From Candidatus Dormiibacterota bacterium (lineage in GTDB: Bacteria > Chloroflexota > Dormibacteria > Aeolococcales > Aeolococcaceae): DNA of 64,000 nt. The notes under the pieces are model-generated. The model searched no databases and was not told where the DNA came from. It saw nothing but the letters and a program-made list of their open reading frames with translations. Numbering within the stretch: the stretch's first letter is position 1; each line of letters begins with the position of its first letter. A program made the translations under genes and the position numbers. The stretch spans positions 83-64,082 of the forward strand of contig CAVQVY010000053.1 of the NCBI GenBank assembly GCA_963717185.1. Direction: 5' to 3'. This document shows, piece by piece, positions 3,278 to 13,252 of the stretch.

Positions 3278-6200
3278 CTACAGCATCGCCAGCGAGCCGG
3301 TCGAACTCTCGGCGTCCTCCTGTGGACTCGGGAGTGTCGGCGCCCGTTCGACGAACGCGCACAGCGCGTTGGCGAGCGGGATCTGCGCCGCGGTCGTGCA
3401 CGCGACACGCAGGAGGTCGGGAGAGCAGACGAGCACAGCGAGGCAGCGCGCCCGCGACACGGCCACGTTCATGCGGTGTCGCGAGTAGAGGAACTCCATG
3501 CCGCGGGGGACGTCCTCCGCGAGCGAGGTGGCCATCGAGTAGATGACCACCGCGCCCTCCTGGCCCTGGAAGCGGTCGACGGTGCCGACGGCGACGTCGT
3601 CCGGCAGCGCGCGTCGCAGCGCGCCGACGTGGGCGTTGTACGGGGCGACGACCAGGATGTCCCTTGCGGTCAGCGGTCGCTGCACACCGTGGTGGTCGAT
3701 CCAGTCGCGTCCCAGCAGCCCGGCCACCAGCCCCGACACGGCGACCGCCTCCTGCTCGGAGGCCGATCGGTTGCCTGTGTGGCGCACCGGCAGCCAGCGC
3801 AGGCCCGTGCCCGACAGCTCCCCGTCCCCGAGCACGCGCTGGCGCGCGCTGTCAGGGCTCGAACGCAGACGCGAGTCGTAGAAGTTCTCGGAGATGTACA
3901 CGCAGACGTCTGGATGCAGACGCCAGGTGACGTCGAGGAACAGCCCGCAGTCGGACGGCACGGTCTCCGCTCCGTTGAGCAGATGCCCCAGCGCCGACGC
4001 AGCCGCGCCGGGCGGGTGCGAGCCCTGGGACGGCTGCTCGAGCTGCTGCGGATCACCGAGCAGCACCAGGTTCCGCGCACACCCCGACACCGCGACAACA
4101 TTGGCGAGCGACAGCTGTCCCGCCTCGTCCACGAAGAGCGTGTCGAACCGCTCCGACATGTCCTCGCGGGCCAGCAGCCACGGCGTCCCGGCGACGACGT
4201 CGACCGTGCCCTCGTCGAGGGCTGCCACGATCGGCGCATTGGTCGTCACGCATTGAACCTGCGGGTCGTCGCAGGCGCGGTCGTCGCTCTTCTGGATCAC
4301 GCGGATGGTGACCCCGCTCCCCGGGCCTCCTCGCAGACGCGCGTGGACCAGCTGGGTGATGGCGCGGTGGCACAGCGCGGTGATCGCAACGGGGCGTCGC
4401 GGCGCCGTGGTGACCAGGTCGACGATCGCGATGGCGCCGGTGTGCGTCTTGCCCGACCCGGGCGGCCCCTGGATCGGGATGCAGGCCTGCTCGGCATCGG
4501 CGATGCAGCGCCGGGCGGCTTCGACCGCGTCCTCGCTGGCGCCGGCGGAGCGCATCGCCATCGGCGGGGCCGCGGACGCGCGGACGGTGGCGCAGCAGGA
4601 GGTCGCGCGCCGCGCGGTGGCACCCCGGCCAGTCGATGCCGTGCCCGGCGACCCATTCGCCGAGGCGCATCAGGGCCGCGCGCAGCGCCGCCGCGTCGGG
4701 CTGGCCGCCGGGGACCACGGCGGTGGGCAGGGGTCCGGGCGGTCGGTGCGCTTGATCAGCAGCTCACCTCGGGCCGGGTCGATATGGTGGATGGTGCCGG
4801 CGCGCCGGTCACCCGGTTGCCGGCGTCGTTGAGGTACGTGCGCGGATCCTCGACGGCGTCGTCGACCCGCAGCTTGGTCTCCTGCGGGGGGAACAGGAAC
4901 CGGAACAGGCGTGAGCGGTTGACCACTCCAACCTCGGCGTCGAAGACCAGCCCGCCGACCGACGAGGCATCGTCGATGAGCTCGTCGTCCGTCGCGTCCC
5001 GCCTCGCGAAGTACTCCCACCACGCGGGCTTGGCGTCGCGCCTGTGCCAGTCGAGGAGCGCGGCAAGAAGCGAGAGCGCCCGCTGCTCGGCGGTCTGCTT
5101 CTGCGCGTCGACCAGGGATCCCCGCCGTGAGCTCGGCGGCGAGGCGGTCGGCTGCTGCGGTGGCCGCCGCCACGGCCTCGGGTGCAACGCCCGCGGAGAC
5201 GGGCAGGCGCGGCAGGGGCCCGACACTCCCTCGAGCTCGGTGCGACGAGCCTCGAGCCAGCCACGCAAGCCCACCAGCGAGCGGCAGTCGTCCTCGTTGT
5301 ACAGCGCGGATCGACCTCGAGGATGCGCGTCGTCGGGCGTCGTCGAGCCACAGCTCGTACTGCACGACGCTGGTCCCCGCGTCGGTGATCTGCGCCGCAC
5401 GGGGCGCCATGTACAGCGGCTCGAGCTTCTTGATCGAGTAGGACTCGACGCCGACGCGCACGCCCTGCCTGACGACCCGGTAGAGGTCGACGAAGACCCC
5501 GCGCGCGGAGCAGCTCGTCCACCTCCTCCTCGCGCGTGCGTAGCGGCCCATCAGGCGCTTCATCGCCGACACCTCGTAGGACGCGTAGTGGTAGACGTGC
5601 ATGCCGGGGTCGCGCCGGCGCGCCGCCATGACCATGTCGATGAAGCTCTCGAAGGCGGCCTTCTCGGCGGCGGCGTCGTGTGCCCACAGCTTCCCGGAAC
5701 GTGCGCGCACGGTGCGTCGCCTTCGACCCACCCGAAGAGGTACTCGCGACCGTCGGGCCCGACGAACTGGTCGCCCTCCATGTCGAAGAAGATGTCCCGC
5801 GGAGAGGGGCGGGAGCGCGGCAAGGCCCCGATGTGGCGCGTCGGCGTCGCGGTTCGATCAGCTCCCACGGCGATGGCGCCTTCGCACGCTCCGACGCCAC
5901 CTGCAGACGAGCCTGGGCGCGAGCGCCTCGAGCGCCGGGGCCCGGATCTGGTCCACCTCGGTGCCGGCGGGGCAGCCGGCCAGCGCGGCGCGCGTCGAGA
6001 TGCCCGCCGCGACCAGCCGGGTGCGCTGGTCGCGCCGAGCGCCGGCGACCAGCGAGAGGTGGTCGTCGCGGCGCCACTGGGCGGTGCAGCGGTCCTTCCA
6101 GTCGCAGTACGCGCAGAGCGCCACCGGGTCCGGCGAGGTGGCCATCCAGCCCGCTGTCGACGGCGGCCTCGAAGCGCAGCCGCACGGTCCGCAGGTAGGC

Positions 6201-6760
6201 GGAGATGTCCGCGTAGAGGAACTACTCGACTGTGCCGTCGCCGAGGCGACGTGCAGCGCCGCGGGGCGTGGCCCTGCAGCCGCGCCACCTGGCGCGAGTA
6301 GTCGCCGAGCTGCAGGAGCGTGCCCGCCTTGGTGGAGCGCGCCAGCTTGGTGTCGTGGGCCTCGTAGCTCCACGGCCCGAGCGCGGCTCGGGGTGTCGAC
6401 GCGGCGCAGGAAATCCGCGTGGCCGCGCCAGCGGCCGTCGAAGAAGCTCGCCTGGTAGATGACGTCGACCCCGGCGCGCATCGCCGCCAGCGTCTCCGCC
6501 TCGGCGGCGGAGCCCCGCGATCGTGCCCGCCGGGCGTGCGATCTCGACCACCGTGGCGCCGCGGCCGCGTGAGCGCCTGCAGGTAGCTCTGCTCGTGGAG
6601 CTCCCGTGCTTACGCAGCACGTCTTGAAGGGGTCGTCACGGCGCGGCCGCTCGAGCTGCCCCGCGGGCCACCGGCGGTCGAGGAAGGAGCGGTGCTCGCA
6701 CCCGGTGAACGCCACCAGGTCGGTGGGGCTGAGGACGAGCACGCTCTCGATGGTCTGCAC
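3278..6760 (-). CDS. TM0106-family RecB-like nuclease fused to an SF1 (DNA2/NAM7-like) helicase (frameshifted)
   Basis: N-term LSPTDLVAFTGCEH, WRGHADFLRRV, DIFFDMEGD, YNEDDC; helicase motifs QGPPGSGKT, DEAGQ, LGDPQQL, GTVDRFQGQE, RMNVAVSRA. Confidence 0.85.
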
Positions 6761-6865
6761 GTGCTCCAATGGTGCACAGGCCGCGACGACAGCTGTTGTC
6801 GCACAGCTGATTCGCAGGACAGAGCGCAGGGACAGCACGTAAGGGCGAGCGCGTACCCTGACCGC

Positions 6866-7142
6866 GTGAACCGGACCACGCCCGGCCGACCGCGACCGCG
6901 CCCAGCGGCGCGTCCGCTGATCACCATGGCCACCGCGGCGGGGGCAGGCGTGCTCACCCTCGGTCGGCGCCGCGGTCGCGGCGGGAACGTTCGGCGGCCG
7001 CACCGTCCCTCCTCGCAGACCGACCAGCCGTCCCCACCCAGGACCCGTCACCGGCCTGCAGCCACCCGCCCAGCCCCCCGGGGACGGCTCCGGGGCTCGG
7101 CGGGCGGCGGCAGGCGTGCCGATCGCCTCCGGCGGCTCCTAG
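6866..7142 (+). CDS. Small membrane-anchored Pro/Gly-rich protein ending in SGGS (frameshifted)
   Basis: TACCCT 6 nt before GTG 6866; hydrophobic ITMATAAGAGVLTL; ends GVPIASGGS-TAG at 7142, 2 nt before apbE. Confidence 0.5.
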
Positions 7143-7144
7143 GC

Positions 7145-8075
7145 GTGATCAGCGCCGGGTGGCGCGCGCTCGGGCACGTCGGTGGTGGTCGCGGTGACCG
7201 ACCGGCGGAGCTCCCTCGCCGCCCGCGAGGTGGTCGCCGCCGAGGTCGACGGCGCTCGACCGCGCCTGCAGCCGCTTCCGCGACGACTCCGACCTGAGCC
7301 GCCTCAACGCCGCCGGCGGGCTGCGCCGTGCTCGTCAGCCCGCTGCTCGCCGCAGGCGATCCGCGTGGCCCTGCGCGCGGCGCGCCTCACCGACGGCGAC
7401 GTCGACCCGACCGTCGGCGGCTGCCATGGCGGCGATCGGCTACGACGCCGACTTCGCCACCATCGGCGCCGACGCGCCCCCCTCCCGTGCCGTGCCAGCC
7501 GCCCGGCTGGACCGGCGTCGCATCACCGACGCGCCCGCCCTGGTCACCCTGCCCGCGCGGCCACCGCTCGACCTCGGCGCCACCGCCAAGGCGCTCGGCG
7601 CCGACCGCGCCGCCGCGGCGGCGCATGCTGCCACCGGCTGCGGCGGTGCTCGTCAGCCTCGGCGGCGACATCGCCGTCGCGGGGACGCCGCCCGCCGGCG
7701 GCTGGCCGGTGCGCGTCACCGACGACCACGCCGCCCAGCGCCGAGGCGCCCGGGCAGGCGATCACGCTGCGCACGGCGGGGGCCTGGCGACGTCGAGCTC
7801 CACGCGTGCGCCACTGGCGCCGCGGCGGCGCGGCACGCTGCACCACATCGTCGACCCGCGCACCGGTGCGCCGGCGCAGTCGCCCGTACCGCACCATCAG
7901 CGTCGCCGCGGCCACGTGTGTGGACGCCAACACGCCAGCACCGCCGCCATGGTGCGCGGCGAGCGCGCTGCCGGCTGGCTGGAGTTCACCGGCCTGCCGG
8001 CGCGGCTGGTCGCCCACGACGGCGTGGTGCTGCACCTCAACCGCTGGCCGGTCAGCGGCGGAGCTGGCGGCTTGA
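7145..8075 (+). CDS. apbE: FAD:protein FMN transferase (ApbE family), frameshifted
   Basis: WRALG start, TDGDVDPTVG, LDLGATAKALGAD, VLVSLGGDIAV, GLATSS, HHIVDPRTG, ATCVDANT. Confidence 0.85.
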
Positions 8076-9113
8076 TCGCGGCCTCCGGGCCAACCGCACT
8101 CTGGTACGCGGCTCGCAGCACCGGGTACGTGAGCCTGCTGCTGCTCACCGCCATCCTGGTGCTGGGCATCGTCACCGTCGATGCGCTGGGACAGCCGGGA
8201 CTGGCCGCGGTTCCTGACCCAGGCGCGTGCACCGCAACCTGTCGCTGCTGGTGCTGGTCTTCCTGGCCATCCACATCATCACCTCGATCGTCGACCCCTT
8301 CGCGGGGATCGCCGCGCTCAACACGGTGGCACCGTTCACCGGCTCCTACCGCCCCGTGTGGCTCGGGCTCGGGGTGGTCTCCATGGAGCTGCTGGTCGCC
8401 CTGGTCGATCACCAGCCTGCTGCGCCAGCGCATCGGCTTCAGGGTCTGGCGCGTGGTCCACTGGGCGGCGTACGCGTGCTGGCCCCTGGCGATGCTGCAC
8501 ACGCTCGGCACGGGCAGCGACGTGCGCTCCGCCGTGGGCCCTGGTCGCTCAGCCTCGGCTGCGTCGGGGCGGTGCGTGTTCGCGATCGTCTGGCGGCTGA
8601 CCAGCGACCGCGGCCGCGCGTGCCGCGGGTGCTGCGCGCCACCAGCCTCGTGGCCACCGCGGCCGCGACCATCGCGCTGCTCGGGCTTCGCGGCCGCCGG
8701 GACCGCTGCACAGCGGGTGGGCGAAGGCGGCCGGGACGCCGGACCGGCTGCTTGTCGCCGCCAGCGGCTGCGGCCCAGCCCACCCCCTCGCCGACAAGCA
8801 CCCCCGCGCCGACGCTGCCGGCCGGGCTCACCGACCAGCTGACCGGCACCGTCGTCCAGGGCACGAGCGCGGTGCAGGTGACCTCCGCGACGCGCGCGAT
8901 GCCAACCTCCGCATCGTCATCGCCGTGGCGCGGCCAACACCCGCGGGACAGCTGCTGATCACCGAGAGCGGCGCCACCGTGTGCAACGTCACCGCCGCGG
9001 TCGCGCAGGACGTGCAGGCCACGTGCGGGCAGACCGCCGTCGACATCACCCTCAGCCAGCAGCCCGACGGCACGATCGCCGGCCAGCTGGTCACCCAGGC
9101 GCGGCGCGCATGA
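8072..9113 (+). CDS. Ferric reductase-like transmembrane (cytochrome b) protein with C-terminal extracytoplasmic domain, frameshifted
   Basis: LWYAARSTG, HRNLSLL..LAIH, WRVVHWAAY..LAMLH (four candidate heme His); Pro/Thr linker; starts overlapping apbE stop (TTGA). Confidence 0.8.
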
Positions 9114-10375
9114 TGCCGGCGGTGACGGCATCGCGCCTCCTCGACGGCCCCCCGCCCGCCGACGGCGCCGAGTTGCTCGCGCGAACACCTCGCACGGCTT
9201 GGCCCGCGGCCGCGGTTCCCCGGCGGCGAGCGCTCATCGACCGTCGTCGACGAGGCCGGCCTGCGCGGCCGGGGCGGCGCCGGGTACCCGACAGCCCGCA
9301 AATGGGCGGCCACCCGCGAACGCTCGCGGGGAAACGCCGTGGTCGTCGCCAACGGCGCGGAGGCCGAGCCGCTCAGCGGCAAGGACCGCATGCTCATGAC
9401 CTCGCGGCCACACCTGGTCCTCGACGGCGTCGCTCCTCGCGGCCGAGGCGGTCGGCGCCGAGCGCGCGGTCGTGTGTATGTCAGCAGCGCCCACGACGAC
9501 GCGGCCGCCGCCGTCCGGCAGGCCATCGACGAGCGCCGGACGGCTCGCGACCTGCCCGTCCCCGTCACCGTGGTGACGAGCGCCGCGCCGCTACGTCGCC
9601 GGCGAGGAGTCGGCGGCCATCGCCCACCTCAACGGGGGGCCGCGAAGCCCACCATGGTGCCGCCCCGCCCGTTCGAGAGCGGCGTCGACGGGCGCCCGAC
9701 GGCTGGTCCAGAACGTCGAGACGCTCGCGCATGCCGCCCTGGTCGCCCGGCGATGGGCCGGAGGCCTACCGCCTCGCCGGCGCCGACGAGGCGACTGGCA
9801 CCGTCCTGGTGACCATGACCGCGGCCATCCATTCGCCCGGGGTGCACGAGCTGCCGGGCGGGTCGACGGTCGCGCAGGCTGTCAGCGCCGCCGGGGGAGC
9901 CACCGCCGCCGTCGCCGCTGTGCTGGTCGGCGGCTACTTCGGTCGCTGGGTCGCCGCCGACGACGCCTGGGACCTGCGCCTGGGCATCGACGTTCCGCTC
10001 GGCAGCGGGGTCATCGCCGTGTTCCCGCACGGCCACTGCGGCGTCACCCAGGCCGCGGCGCTGGTCGGCTTCCTGGCGCGGGAGAGCGCGCGCCAGTGCG
10101 GCCCGTGCGAGCACGGCCTCGCCTCACTGGCCGCGACCACCGCCGAGGTGGCCGCCGGCCGTGCCAAGCCGCGCGACGCGGAGCGCCTGCAGCGCTGGAT
10201 CGCCCAGATCGCCGGGCGTGGCGCCTGCCACCACCCCGACGGCGCGCTGGTGCTGCTCTCCAGCGCGCTGCGGGTGTTCTCGGGCGACGTCACCACCCAC
10301 ATCAGGCGCGGCCGCTGCGACCGCAACCCGGCGCCGCTGCTCGCGGCTCCGGACTGGACGCGCGACCGCCGATGA
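9110..10375 (+). CDS. NuoF-like NADH dehydrogenase flavoprotein (FMN/Fe-S), frameshifted
   Basis: GLRGRGGAGYPTARKW, NGAEAEPLSGKD, YVAGEES, QNVETLAH, ESARQCGPC..GACHHPDG; ATGA overlap. Confidence 0.85.
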   Translation: MMPAVTASRLLDGPPPADGAELLARTPRTAWPAAAVPRRRALIDRRRRGRPARPGRRRVPDSPQMGGHPRTLAGKRRGRRQRRGGRAAQRQGPHAHDLAATPGPRRRRSSRPRRSAPSARSCVCQQRPRRRGRRRPAGHRRAPDGSRPARPRHRGDERRAATSPARSRRPSPTSTGGREAHHGAAPPVRERRRRAPDGWSRTSRRSRMPPWSPGDGPEAYRLAGADEATGTVLVTMTAAIHSPGVHELPGGSTVAQAVSAAGGATAAVAAVLVGGYFGRWVAADDAWDLRLGIDVPLGSGVIAVFPHGHCGVTQAAALVGFLARESARQCGPCEHGLASLAATTAEVAAGRAKPRDAERLQRWIAQIAGRGACHHPDGALVLLSSALRVFSGDVTTHIRRGRCDRNPAPLLAAPDWTRDRR

Positions 10376-10584
10376 GCCGGCTGCGCGTGGACCCGATCAG
10401 CTGCGACGGCTTCGGCATGTGCGCCGAGCTGCTGCCGGAGCGGATCACGCTCGACGACTGGGGGTACCCGATCATCGACGGCCGGCCGATGAGCCGCGAC
10501 CTCCTCGAGCTCGCGCGCCGAGCGGTCGCGGCGTGCCCCACCGCCGCCCTGCGGCTGGCCCGCGAGGACGAGACCCACCGCTAG
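10372..10584 (+). CDS. Ferredoxin (single-cluster, 3Fe-4S-like)
   Basis: MSRLRVDPISCDGFGMCAELLPE...AVAACPTAAL; ATGA overlap. Confidence 0.85.
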   Translation: MSRLRVDPISCDGFGMCAELLPERITLDDWGYPIIDGRPMSRDLLELARRAVAACPTAALRLAREDETHR

Positions 10585-13252
10585 CGGTCGTCAGGCGCCC
10601 GTGCGCACCTCGTCGGCGCACGTCCCAGCACGCCGTCGAGCATCTCGAGGAACTCGGTCACCCGCGCGGGCTTGGTGAGGAAGGCGATCGCCCCCGCTTC
10701 GAGCAGCCGGCGCACCTGCCGCTCGGTGGCATCGGCGCTGTACACCACCACCGGGATCGGGGCCGTGCGCGGGTCGTCCTGGAGGCGGCGGAGCACCTCG
10801 TCACCGTTGAGGTCGGGCAGGTGCAGGTCGAGGATGACGAGGTCGGGCCGGTGCTCGCGCGCCAGGTCGATGGCGATGCCACCCTGCATGGCGGTGAGCA
10901 GGCGCACGTTGGGGCGCAGCGCGAAGATCGACTCGACGAGCGCGATCGTGGCCAGGTTGTCCTCGACGTACAGCACGGTTCGCCCGGCGACGGCGTCGCG
11001 CAGCACAGGCGGCCCGGTGGCAGGGATGACCGTGGCGGAGTCCGTGCCCGTGGCCTGCTGCAGGCGGACGATGAAGGTGGCGCCCTCTCCCTTGGCGCTG
11101 CGCAGCTGCAGCGAGCCGCCCATGGCGACCGTGAGCTGGCGGGCGAGGGCCAGGCCCAGCCCCGTTCCCTGGACGTGGCTGCGCTCTGCGCCGAGCCGCT
11201 CGAACGGCTGGAAGAGCCGTTCCTGTTGTGCCTCGTCCAGTCCCGGGCCGTCGTCGATCACCTCGATCTCCACGGCGCCATCCCTGGCCGCAGCGCCGGC
11301 GACCACGTGGCCGCCCTCGGCGCCGTACTTGATGGCATTGGAGAGAAGGTTGAGCAGCACCTGCACGAGCCGCTGACGGTCGGCTCGGATGTAGATGCGG
11401 TCAGGACCCTCGATGCGGCATGCTGATGGTCACGCTGCGCTCGTTGGCGGTCTGGGCGACGAGCCCGACGCACTCCTCGAGAAGTGTGCGCACGTCCAGC
11501 GGCTGCAGCGAGAGGCTCTCGCGGCCCGCCTCGATGCGGGCGATGTCGAGCACGTCGTTCACCAGGCTCAGCAGATGCGAGCCGGCCCGCTGGATCGCGT
11601 CGATGGCGGTGAGCTGGTCCTCGCGCGGCTCGCGCATCTCGAGGAGATCGCTGAAGCCGAGCATTGCGGCCAGGGGTGTCCGCAACTCGTGGCTCATTCG
11701 CGAGAGGTACTCACTCTTGGCGTTGCTGGCCTGCTCGGCCACGTCGCGAGCATGGCGGAGCTCGTCGGCGGCGCGTTTCTCATTGGTGATGTCGCGGTTG
11801 ATCTCCAGCACCGCAATGGGTTTGCCCTCGGCGTCGCGCTGGACCGCCCAGCGTGCGCTGATGGGCAGGGTGCGGCCGTCCTTGGTGACCTGGCGCAGCT
11901 CCCCCTCCCAGTGCTCGTGCTCGAGCAGAGAGGCGACGATCATCTCGAGCGGCATCGAGTGCTCCGACTGCAGCAGCGGCAGCGGGTCTTTGCCGATCGC
12001 CTCCTCCCGGCTGTACCCGTACAGCTCGGATGCCGCCTTGTTCCAGTACTGGATGGCGCGGGTGTCGAAGTCCCAGCTGAAGACCGCGTCGTAGGCGAGG
12101 TCGAGCAGCTCGGCGTTGCGGCGCACCCCCACCACCAGGTGGACACGGTCCAGGGCGACGGTGATCGACACCGCGTACTGAGCGAGTCGTGACAGCTCCT
12201 CGTCGCCGAACAGAGGTGTGAACGGGCCCGCCAGCACAGCGAGGTATCCCTCCCCGGCCTGCGAGCTGCAGCGGAACCACCGCGGCGGGACCCAGCGTGC
12301 TGGTGAACGAGAGACCGGCCGAGCCGCGCAAGCCCTCGAGCTCGTGGTGGAGACGGTCGCCGTCCGTGGGGGCGATCCCGGTCAGCGCGAGCACGCGGCC
12401 GTCCAGGGCGATCATCGCCGCACCGCCGCCGAGCAGACGGGCGGCCCACTCGAGGGCACGAGCGGCGAGCGTCTCCTCATCCGGGGAGAACAGCAGCAGG
12501 TTGTTGAGCGCCTGGCGCAGCTGGATCTCCTCGCCCTCACGCCAGATCCGTCGCAGCCAGCCGGGCGGGGTCAGCGCAATGGCGAGCAGCGGCATGCTCA
12601 GGAGCACCACGCTCTCGACCGCCAGCTGCAGGGTCGCGCTGTTCGATGCACCCACGGCGGCCACGGTGCCGAGCAGCGCGAGGATGATCCCGGCGAACCC
12701 CGCATTCAGCGAACGGAGCCGCGCGCGCTGCACCCGCGGCAGCGTTCCCGACACGCGCCAGAGCCGCACGATCGACGCTCCCACCACGGCGCACCACGTC
12801 AGCAGCAGCAGCACGTCGACCAGCAGCGGCACGCCGGTGGGCTTGGTTGCCGGGTTGTTGAGGTTGACCGCGATGGCTGCACCGGTGACCAGCGCCACCA
12901 CCACGGCGGACGACCGCAGTGCCCACGCGCGCATGGGGATGAGGCTGTTCCGGAAGAGCACGAACCCGAATGCCGACGCCATGAGCAGGAAGATGCTCAC
13001 CGCGGCCAGCACAATCGCGGCAGTGCCGGAGAACTGCGTGACCCTGCCGAGGATCGCGAGGAGGCCGAGGAGGCCCACCGCCACGGCGAGGTAACGGCGG
13101 CTCTGGCCGCGATGGCGCAACCAGTCCACGACGGTGAGCGCGCCGAGCAGGAACAGTGCCGCGCCCACCGCCCATTGAAGTGCCGCGAGTGCCTGGCTCA
13201 CATTCGCGAGTATGACGACCGGGGCCACGAGTGAACGGCGATCCGTTGCCAA
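10581..13252 (-). CDS. Membrane-bound PAS hybrid histidine kinase/response regulator (frameshifted)
   Basis: About 7 N-terminal TM helices, PAS (YWNKAASELYGY), H-box SRMSHELRTPL, N/G boxes NLLSNAIKY, GTGLGL, receiver VILDLHLPD. Confidence 0.85.

Follow-up and report, generated by a model that had tools for sequence, protein, structure and literature searches.

A 64,000-nucleotide stretch of DNA (the window; G000:C53:83-64082) from a Dormibacterota metagenome-assembled genome (G000; 2.8 Mb, 57 contigs, 69% complete, about 72% G+C) carries a five-gene cluster that may encode a transmembrane electron exporter. Its genes encode a small bitopic membrane protein, an ApbE-family flavin transferase (ApbE), a di-heme b membrane protein (the heme protein), a NuoF-like protein and a ferredoxin (Table 1). 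They are tightly coupled: the small gene stops with TAG at 7140-7142 and a 2-nt gap separates it from the ApbE start codon at 7145, the ApbE and heme-protein genes share a cTTGA overlap (8072-8075), and the heme-protein/NuoF-like and NuoF-like/ferredoxin junctions are ATGA overlaps (9110-9113 and 10372-10375). The positions and junctions given for the five genes in the initial annotation are thus confirmed on the window DNA. The cluster is flanked by a divergent gene for a 1165-aa SF1 helicase/nuclease and a convergent gene for a PAS-HisKA-HATPase-receiver kinase. Neither flank is a nuo or hydrogenase gene, and the five genes thus form a bounded unit without such neighbours; the earlier claim that no other nuo or hydrogenase subunits are present therefore stands for both flanks, the part of the 64-kb window that was scanned for them. 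The same annotation had seen no canonical FMN-binding domain gene in the cluster, and Pfam agrees, with no FMN_bind (PF04205) match among the five proteins in their intact orthologues at locus L008.

Table 1. Genes of the cluster in the window, and orthologous loci of relatives in which ApbE is missing
Feature	Position	Strand	Remarks
Small bitopic membrane protein gene	6866..7142	+	frame-broken in window; window match with 1 internal stop
ApbE-family FAD:protein FMN transferase gene	7145..8075	+	GTG start; frame-broken in window
MsrQ-like / ferric-reductase-domain di-heme b membrane protein gene	8072..9113	+	frame-broken in window
NuoF-like NAD(P)H-oxidising flavo-iron-sulfur protein gene	9110..10375	+	frame-broken to ~9760, intact beyond
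Single-cluster ferredoxin gene, 70 aa, Fer4_15	10372..10584	+	intact in window
ApbE-less orthologous loci	G016:C2:85510-88456; G003:C6:230442-233361; G012:C88:4291-7219; G008:C238:33-864		

Given the state of the window copy, the first four genes can be read only with the help of relatives. In a DNA alignment of the window with seven same-genus loci, we counted the indels that are unique to the window and whose length is not divisible by three. There are 39 across 6866-9760, changes of 1-2 bases each (20 in 6866-8000, 11 in 8000-9100 and 8 in 9100-9760), none in 9760-10584, 1 in 10585-12150 and 15 in the upstream gene (5300-6800); each relative has 0-1 in the same alignment. Taken with an ApbE Pfam match that is divided over two frames, these breaks could be the marks of a decayed pseudogene cluster in G000 rather than of a working operon. 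We find decay quite unlikely, as the nucleotide identity to same-genus relatives is 78-80% across the full 4 kb, a region conserved as a whole in the genus, and the coding frame flips repeatedly along the window copy while the G+C content at third codon positions remains high in whichever frame codes locally. Sporadic indels also split the neighbouring kinase, and the pattern fits a local error in an assembly of such low completeness and many contigs. Indeed, because the dense stretch enters the unrelated helicase gene upstream and ends abruptly inside the nuoF-like gene, the indels are very probably assembly errors. Gene calls in this contig need frameshift-aware handling.

Relatives from the same genus keep all five open reading frames whole. 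The domain calls were therefore made, with Pfam and NCBIfam, on the intact orthologues at L008 (identical to L016), where the five open reading frames encode 97 (small protein), 307 (ApbE), 342 (heme protein), 418 (NuoF-like) and 70 aa (ferredoxin). The loci used in alignments, L005-L013, belong to genomes G001, G002, G007, G009, G010, G011, G013, G017 and G018, none of which is flagged unpublished; tallies over related genomes take in the unpublished-flagged G012, G014, G015, G021, G026, G030 and G068. For conservation, a profile scan with the heme protein at one genome per species gave 595 pattern matches, of which 565 were confirmed and 80 loci kept. These come from Dormibacterota, Solirubrobacterales, Acidimicrobiia and other Actinomycetota, and several are cut by contig ends. 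When gene content was scored by tblastn with the L008 proteins, the NuoF-like gene was found downstream of the heme-protein gene in 72 of the 80 loci, the ferredoxin gene likewise downstream in 66 and ApbE upstream in 49. All three partners are present in 42 loci, NuoF-like and ferredoxin without adjacent ApbE in 24, ApbE and NuoF-like in 5, ApbE only in 2, NuoF-like only in 1 and none in 6. The heme protein thus forms a stable set of three with the NuoF-like protein and the ferredoxin; ApbE, though often adjacent, is dispensable. A survey of this kind had been called for in the initial annotation, and it finds the genes co-conserved. The system extends to Dormibacterota.

Immediately before ApbE, or before the heme-protein gene where ApbE is missing, lies a gene for a small protein of recurrent plan: a basic n-region with 5-9 Lys/Arg, one transmembrane (TM) helix, an FPG[RHK]-like turn, and then a linker and a tail. 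The linker is of low complexity (Pro/Ser/Thr/Ala) and very variable in length, so that the proteins span 73-189 aa. The sole strongly conserved C-terminal feature of the family is the end itself, ...P-[VI]-[VA]-[VIT]-S-G-G-S-stop. The window protein has the FPG[RH]-like turn and ends in ...PIASGGS-stop; the L008 orthologue lies at L008:1665-1958. No Pfam or NCBIfam family matches this orthologue, and in the ESM Atlas the family is present as 'hypothetical protein' only, without Pfam. As a control for the tail motif, we took 10,971 six-frame stop-to-stop segments of at least 35 aa in the 80 loci. Only 65 of them end in [ST]G[GA][ST]; 55 end in SGGS, and each of these is on the strand of the cluster and immediately precedes ApbE or the heme-protein gene. 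An SGGS end is thereby found in 55 of the 80 loci. Scored against 1.84 billion representative proteins, the small-protein profile has 1455 matches with E<=0.001, of which 135 reach E<=1e-10. Among the best 150 metagenomic matches, 128 end in [ST]G[GA][ST] (117 in SGGS), in 17 another 1-5 residues come after [ST]GGS, SGSS closes 3, and the last 2 depart from the pattern.

This ending recalls the substrate motif of ApbE. According to the available text of its description, the motif is D-x-x-[S/T]-G-A-[S/T], FMN is placed on the last residue and the motif may end at the modified residue (PMC12052999). SGGS agrees with it at -3, -2 and 0 ([S/T], Gly and [S/T]), where the 128 motif-ending representatives have Ser in 124 and Thr in 4, Gly in all 128, and Ser in 127 and Thr in 1, respectively. 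The two genes also go together across genomes. The 31 related genomes are kin and not independent, and the genome tallies are a pattern and not a statistic; ApbE is present in 25 of them and the small-protein family in 24, with concordant presence in 30 of 31. By coordinates, we place 26 of the 33 small-gene matches upstream of an ApbE match and at most about 185 nt from it; the other 7 are directly upstream of a heme-protein gene. From its sequence and its place, the small protein is the best candidate for the flavinylated component, whose identity the initial annotation had left open. The heme-protein profile matches 55 of 121 genomes at E<=1e-20 and hits any MsrQ-like TM domain, so it was not used for co-occurrence.

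A read-through fusion of the small protein and ApbE was considered as well, for the two are in the same frame with one stop between them in 6 of the 8 relatives in which the ApbE start was located. We reject it: of 10 sequences, 7 have TAG as the stop and 3 have TAA, the spacer is 1, 2, 3 or 4 nt, the GTG/ATG start is conserved, and the ATG of L007 is out of frame. As to export of the small protein, a twin-arginine RR is present in many family members and missing at the aligned place in L038, L040, L066 and L074, so that the family as a whole does not conserve it; TatC occurs in 30 of the 31 related genomes.

A second subfamily of upstream proteins occurs at L047, L050-L055, L063, L064, L068 and L088 (for example, L050:3545-4084). 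These proteins have about 180-230 aa and a poly-proline run, and they end in ...[AV]CHSTP[ST][HR]PC-stop, not in SGGS; no Pfam family was found for them above threshold. ApbE, heme protein, NuoF-like protein and ferredoxin are all encoded downstream, and 9 of the 11 loci also have a gene for an ECF-type sigma factor nearby on the other strand. Judging by its composition, the Cys/His-rich CHSTP tail looks like a set of metal or heme ligands.

The ApbE of the cluster belongs to its family by a full-length domain match (PF02424; 169.8 bits, E 1.1e-49, profile positions 2-258 of 266 on L008). In 44 cluster ApbEs, DLGA.AK, ATS, HH..DP..TG and D-A-x-x-S-T-A-type positions are conserved, among which we take the catalytic residues to be. 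Its start codon follows the upstream SGGS stop codon by 1-4 nt. In-frame N-terminal extensions were inspected for a missed export signal: of 32 longer ones, 2 have a hydrophobic window, and both are wrong-frame reads of the small gene.

The heme protein of L008 matches Ferric_reduct at 29.9 bits against a cut-off of 28. Four histidines, H53, H67, H129 and H142, are invariant in 68 homologues; they form two pairs on TM2 and TM4, with spacings of 14 and 13 residues, and are the predicted ligands of two b hemes. The AlphaFold model (mean pLDDT 82.8) has six TM helices and a C-terminal 8-stranded beta domain with 2 conserved Cys. Foldseek matches the helical part to the TM domains of STEAP4, NOX5 and STEAP1/2 (6hcy, 5o0t, 7tai, 8ucd, 6y9b) with probability 1.00 and E 0.018-0.15. 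The heme protein is thus like NOX, STEAP and MsrQ in its fold match and in having two His pairs on two helices for predicted b hemes. It differs from these proteins in that the donor would be the separate NuoF-like/ferredoxin pair and not a fused FAD/NADPH domain, and in the beta barrel added at the C-terminus in about half of the loci. Compared with NOX, it lacks the first helix and has a seventh-equivalent helix in addition, an arrangement that would turn both termini outward. The Arg-rich loops 38-52, 117-121 and 173-187 are predicted to be cytoplasmic by the positive-inside rule, and the dehydrogenase domain of NOX, which is cytoplasmic, sits after TM6. By this reasoning the N-terminus, the GWAxAAGTP motif that follows the sixth helix and the beta domain should all be outside.

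The beta domain also models confidently alone, with pLDDT >90 over the strands. It has no Pfam family, and neither the whole model nor the domain alone gave a Foldseek match for it at E<=0.001. A wide VIA-align search found 7x80_A at Z 9.4 (rmsd 2.9, 97 aligned), 5k21_A (pyocyanin demethylase) at 8.3, and 2q03_B and the streptavidin permutant 4gd9_A at 8.1, where the background of the tool is Z 7-8. The matches at Z 9.4-8.0 are small-molecule-binding barrels, namely a Diels-Alderase, the pyocyanin demethylase, an uncharacterised Shewanella protein and streptavidin/avidin. Because these values are near background, we claim only that the modelled domain resembles a generic 8-stranded ligand-binding-type barrel, and nothing more specific.

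Modelling of a complex, which the initial annotation had also suggested, was applied to the heme protein and the small protein. With two hemes and one FMN included, the pair scores 0.84 in 3/3 runs, and the best of 3 controls 0.00; among 80 solved complexes 58 reach this mark, as do 2 among 110 mismatched pairs, a calibration that is only roughly applicable to a model with its own alignments and ligands. The pLDDT of the partner is about 60 and the contact agreement at least 55%. In the interface, residues 12-48 of the small protein face 4-24, 45-66, 148-154 and 222-225 of the heme protein: the n-region is a helix packed on the heme protein, and the segment after the TM helix touches 148-154 and 222-225. 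The model supports the small protein as a conserved bitopic subunit binding the heme protein, and in the modelled orientation its N-terminus would be cytoplasmic and its tail outside.

The same region of the heme protein offers another possible site for ApbE. Following the sixth helix, the motif GPLxxGWAxAAGTP has nine residues invariant in the 68 sequences (G207, P208, G212, W213, A214, A217, G218, T219 and P220), and it is conceivable that ApbE flavinylates the heme protein at Thr219, at the outer end of TM6, with the small protein as a purely structural partner whose SGGS serves docking, another modification or sorting. The motif adjoins the post-TM segment of the small protein in the complex model (residues 222-225), and the CHSTP-tail subfamily, in which ApbE is present too, retains it. 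Nevertheless, A-A-G-T misfits [S/T]-G-A-[S/T], since -3 and -2 are Ala and -1 is Gly; a site in a polytopic protein, across the membrane from an ApbE without a signal, is harder to reconcile with the data than a free C-terminus; and this reading would give no reason why SGGS is so strictly conserved across phyla. Flavinylation at Thr219 is thus an unlikely explanation.

On the cytoplasmic side, the NuoF-like protein of L008 resembles NuoF, the 51-kDa subunit of complex I, in its Complex1_51K, SLBB and NADH_4Fe-4S domains and in the Gly-rich GLRGRGG loop. It is not an equivalog, however, as it scores 212.9 bits against TIGR01959, whose cut-off is 558.65, and it also differs from NuoF in its iron-sulfur ligands and in its flanks without nuo genes. 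Six residues are conserved in 58 sequences: C307, C327, C330, C370, C400 and H394. Of the CxxCxxC triad, the second and third Cys are kept (C327 and C330), as is the distal Cys (C370), and Ala stands in place of the first. C307, C400 and H394 are extra conserved residues (L016:6026-7279). The altered ligands suggest that the cluster site is wired differently or that there is a further site for a metal. The ferredoxin matches Fer4_15 at 39.1 bits against a cut-off of 22.4, and across 67 sequences only three of its Cys, C11, C17 and C55, are conserved, which suggests a [3Fe-4S] cluster.

Considering these components together, we propose that the operon is a self-contained transmembrane electron exporter in which the flavinylated tail of the small protein replaces the FMN-binding domain, and we give this reading roughly even odds (about 0.5). 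The NuoF-like flavo-iron-sulfur protein would oxidise NAD(P)H in the cytoplasm, and the three-Cys ferredoxin would hand the electrons to the inner heme of the MsrQ-like, NOX/STEAP-type di-heme b protein, whose two hemes would bring them to the outer face of the membrane. There, the small protein would be a fixed subunit with its N-terminus inside and its helix packed on TM1/TM2 of the heme protein, and its outer tail, a predicted disordered stretch of 50-150 residues, would end in ...P-V-V-S-G-G-S. The co-encoded ApbE would esterify FMN to the last serine. On this flexible leash the flavin could stand in for the FMN_bind domain of canonical systems and shuttle electrons from the outer heme to an external acceptor, perhaps docking in the C-terminal barrel where one is present. 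The gene content, conservation, heme ligands, C-terminal motif and, by modelling, the subunit packing were computed here; flavinylation with its site and compartment, the direction of electron flow and the acceptor are what we infer from them. The path from NADH through the NuoF-like protein and ferredoxin to heme b and a surface flavin had been put forward in the initial annotation, with iron reduction, repair or extracellular electron transfer as possible functions; it fits the domains, the heme-ligand histidines, the NOX/STEAP-like fold and the co-conservation, and its surface-flavin step is complicated by the lack of an export signal on ApbE, which that annotation had not noticed.

Several observations weigh against the proposed exporter. 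ApbE has no signal peptide, and in 14 of 46 loci no more than 25 codons are left upstream for one, yet the tail is predicted to be outside. The tail motif departs from D-x-x-[S/T]-G-A-[S/T] in the 128 representatives, as -1 is Gly in 121 and Ala in 7, and the five commonest residues at -6 are V (41), P (25), A (13), S (11) and H (8), with Asp not among them. The SGGS gene is kept without an adjacent ApbE in 24 of the 80 loci and in 7 of the 33 copies of the relatives. Conversely, 11 loci with adjacent ApbE have the ...PPPPP-x-CHSTP[ST][HR]PC tail, and the target of ApbE there is therefore not SGGS. The complex model does not place the tail of the small protein, only residues 12-48 of which are in the interface. 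Only 44 of the 80 loci have a barrel that aligns to its end, so it is not a universal part, which weakens what was already a speculation, that the flavin docks in it. Finally, the window's own copy of the cluster is frame-broken.

The missing export signal bears most directly on where ApbE acts. One possibility is that it acts only in the cytoplasm and that no covalent surface flavin exists: ApbE would serve as a FAD pyrophosphatase or in flavin trafficking, loading FMN into the NuoF-like protein, or would modify a cytoplasmic partner, and the outer heme would reduce a soluble or cell-wall acceptor directly. FAD-pyrophosphatase activity is found among ApbE-family proteins, and NOX/STEAP-type proteins reduce substrates directly at the outer heme. 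Cytoplasmic ApbEs are known (PMC12052999, in its available text), and the cluster ApbE, being without an export signal, could be one of them. On the other hand, no conserved [ST]G[AG][ST] is seen in the conservation lines of the NuoF-like protein or the ferredoxin (58 and 67 sequences), and a purely cytoplasmic role would explain neither the 1-4 nt between the SGGS stop and the ApbE start nor the genome-level concordance of ApbE with the small protein. We therefore hold it to be improbable. For the proposed exporter, the simplest reconciliation of a signal-less ApbE with an outside tail is that flavinylation takes place in the cytoplasm, where FAD is available, on the free C-terminus, and that the tail is then translocated; this order of events would be the most likely one because ApbE lacks an export signal.

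The relation to published systems can be stated as follows. In the available text of the survey of flavinylation systems, MsrQ-like clusters number 1797, mostly from Actinobacteria, and 31 of them have a NuoF-like protein (PF10589), with NAD(P)H as the proposed donor (Méheust 2021, PMC8238504). These clusters were defined by a PF01794 gene within five genes of an ApbE, FMN-bind, DUF2271 or DUF3570 gene and by a signal peptide or lipidation site on the latter, and they 'typically include' an FMN-binding-domain gene (PMC8238504). Here, the Ferric_reduct gene is directly downstream of ApbE; an FMN-binding domain is absent from the cluster, and PF04205 occurs in 2 of 31 related genomes, both times elsewhere; and 44 of 46 loci have no hydrophobic N-terminal extension of ApbE. 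As far as the survey describes it, the cluster is a NuoF-bearing variant of the published MsrQ-like flavinylation system. It shares with that variant a PF01794 di-heme protein with apbE, the NuoF-like presumed entry point and a proposed path from cytosolic NAD(P)H to an extracytosolic flavin, and differs in having no FMN_bind gene, a signal-less ApbE, and a conserved SGGS-tailed subunit and ferredoxin. Clusters like this one were probably filtered out of the survey, which, by its stated definition, required Pfam substrate domains and signal peptides.

The initial annotation had called the system poorly described. This has to be narrowed, since the NADH-to-flavin path is, in the available text, already a published model (Méheust 2021, PMC8238504), and it is the small tail-motif subunit and the signal-less ApbE that appear undescribed. 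A third such feature appears to be the rarity of FMN_bind relative to ApbE in the related genomes. No publication was found that contains both ApbE and SGGS; supplementary files were outside this search, and clusters of this type may be listed in Supplementary file 1 of Méheust 2021.

The closest precedents for a tail-borne flavin are ApbE substrates whose motif is terminal or unstructured. Engineered seven-residue flavin-tags work best at a terminus, and Asp->Ala has minor effects only, in the available text (PMC12052999); likewise, flavinylation sites on unstructured C-terminal extensions are proven for FMN_red proteins in the part of the report consulted (Huang et al. 2024, PMC11334425). 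As these sources describe them, such substrates resemble the small protein in carrying, at a terminus without structure, a short motif of the [S/T]G[A/G][S/T] type whose last residue can be modified. The motif of the small protein is distinguished by Gly at -1 and no Asp at -6, and whereas FMN_red has a folded flavin-binding domain, the small protein is a TM anchor and linker only. To our knowledge, all known ApbE substrates have a folded flavin site. We tentatively suggest, with less than even confidence, that the small protein represents a new class of naturally occurring ApbE substrates: a 'natural flavin-tag' without a flavin-binding fold, in which FMN is installed before export on the last serine of a terminal ...VVSGGS.

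Covalent flavinylation by ApbE is the main cytochrome-independent wiring of bacterial redox chemistry outside the cytoplasm. If our proposal is true, a carrier without a domain, tagged on its tail, widens the substrate rules of ApbE, flavinylation can precede export, and FAD export is unnecessary. It would also explain why ApbE is common and FMN_bind rare in Dormibacterota, an abundant and uncultured soil lineage. A swinging-arm flavin would then connect the outer heme to wall or external acceptors in a large family from soil Dormibacterota and Actinomycetota. If it is wrong, the cluster is still a clean instance of the published MsrQ-like/NuoF system in a new phylum.

Beyond the studied cluster, related genes recur in these genomes. 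The genome of the window has a paralogous pair of a short MsrQ-like and a NuoF-like gene, as well as a separate signal-less ApbE (G000:C26:2596-4537, L014; G000:C28:33582-34406, L015); the pair comes after a two-component system. Relatives have up to four ApbE matches and several paralogous clusters. In some same-genus species ApbE has been lost at the orthologous locus, and the SGGS gene abuts the heme-protein gene directly (Table 1); these genomes, of which G012 is flagged unpublished, keep an ApbE elsewhere. The two FMN_bind matches, G008:C206:6649-7651 (L096) and G019:C34:42734-43662 (L097), are each directly beside another ApbE and are canonical ApbE/FMN_bind pairs apart from the studied cluster.

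As for an acceptor gene beside the cluster, clustering of flanking open reading frames, which is noisy owing to wrong-frame reads in high-GC DNA, found no universally conserved neighbour. A cytochrome b561-type membrane protein (Ni_hydr_CYTB 39.4 bits, DUF4405 24.1 bits) is encoded near the cluster in 11 loci, for example at L038:3930-4661; these are mostly from Actinomycetota, and the position of the gene is variable. Its role may be that of an acceptor or of a second conduit with heme. In the window itself, the indel-dense stretch runs from about 4600 to 9760 and also breaks the helicase/nuclease gene, and the downstream hybrid histidine kinase is split in three frames on the minus strand (open reading frames 10581-11366, 11401-12237 and 11780-13252), with a break at about 11370-11400.

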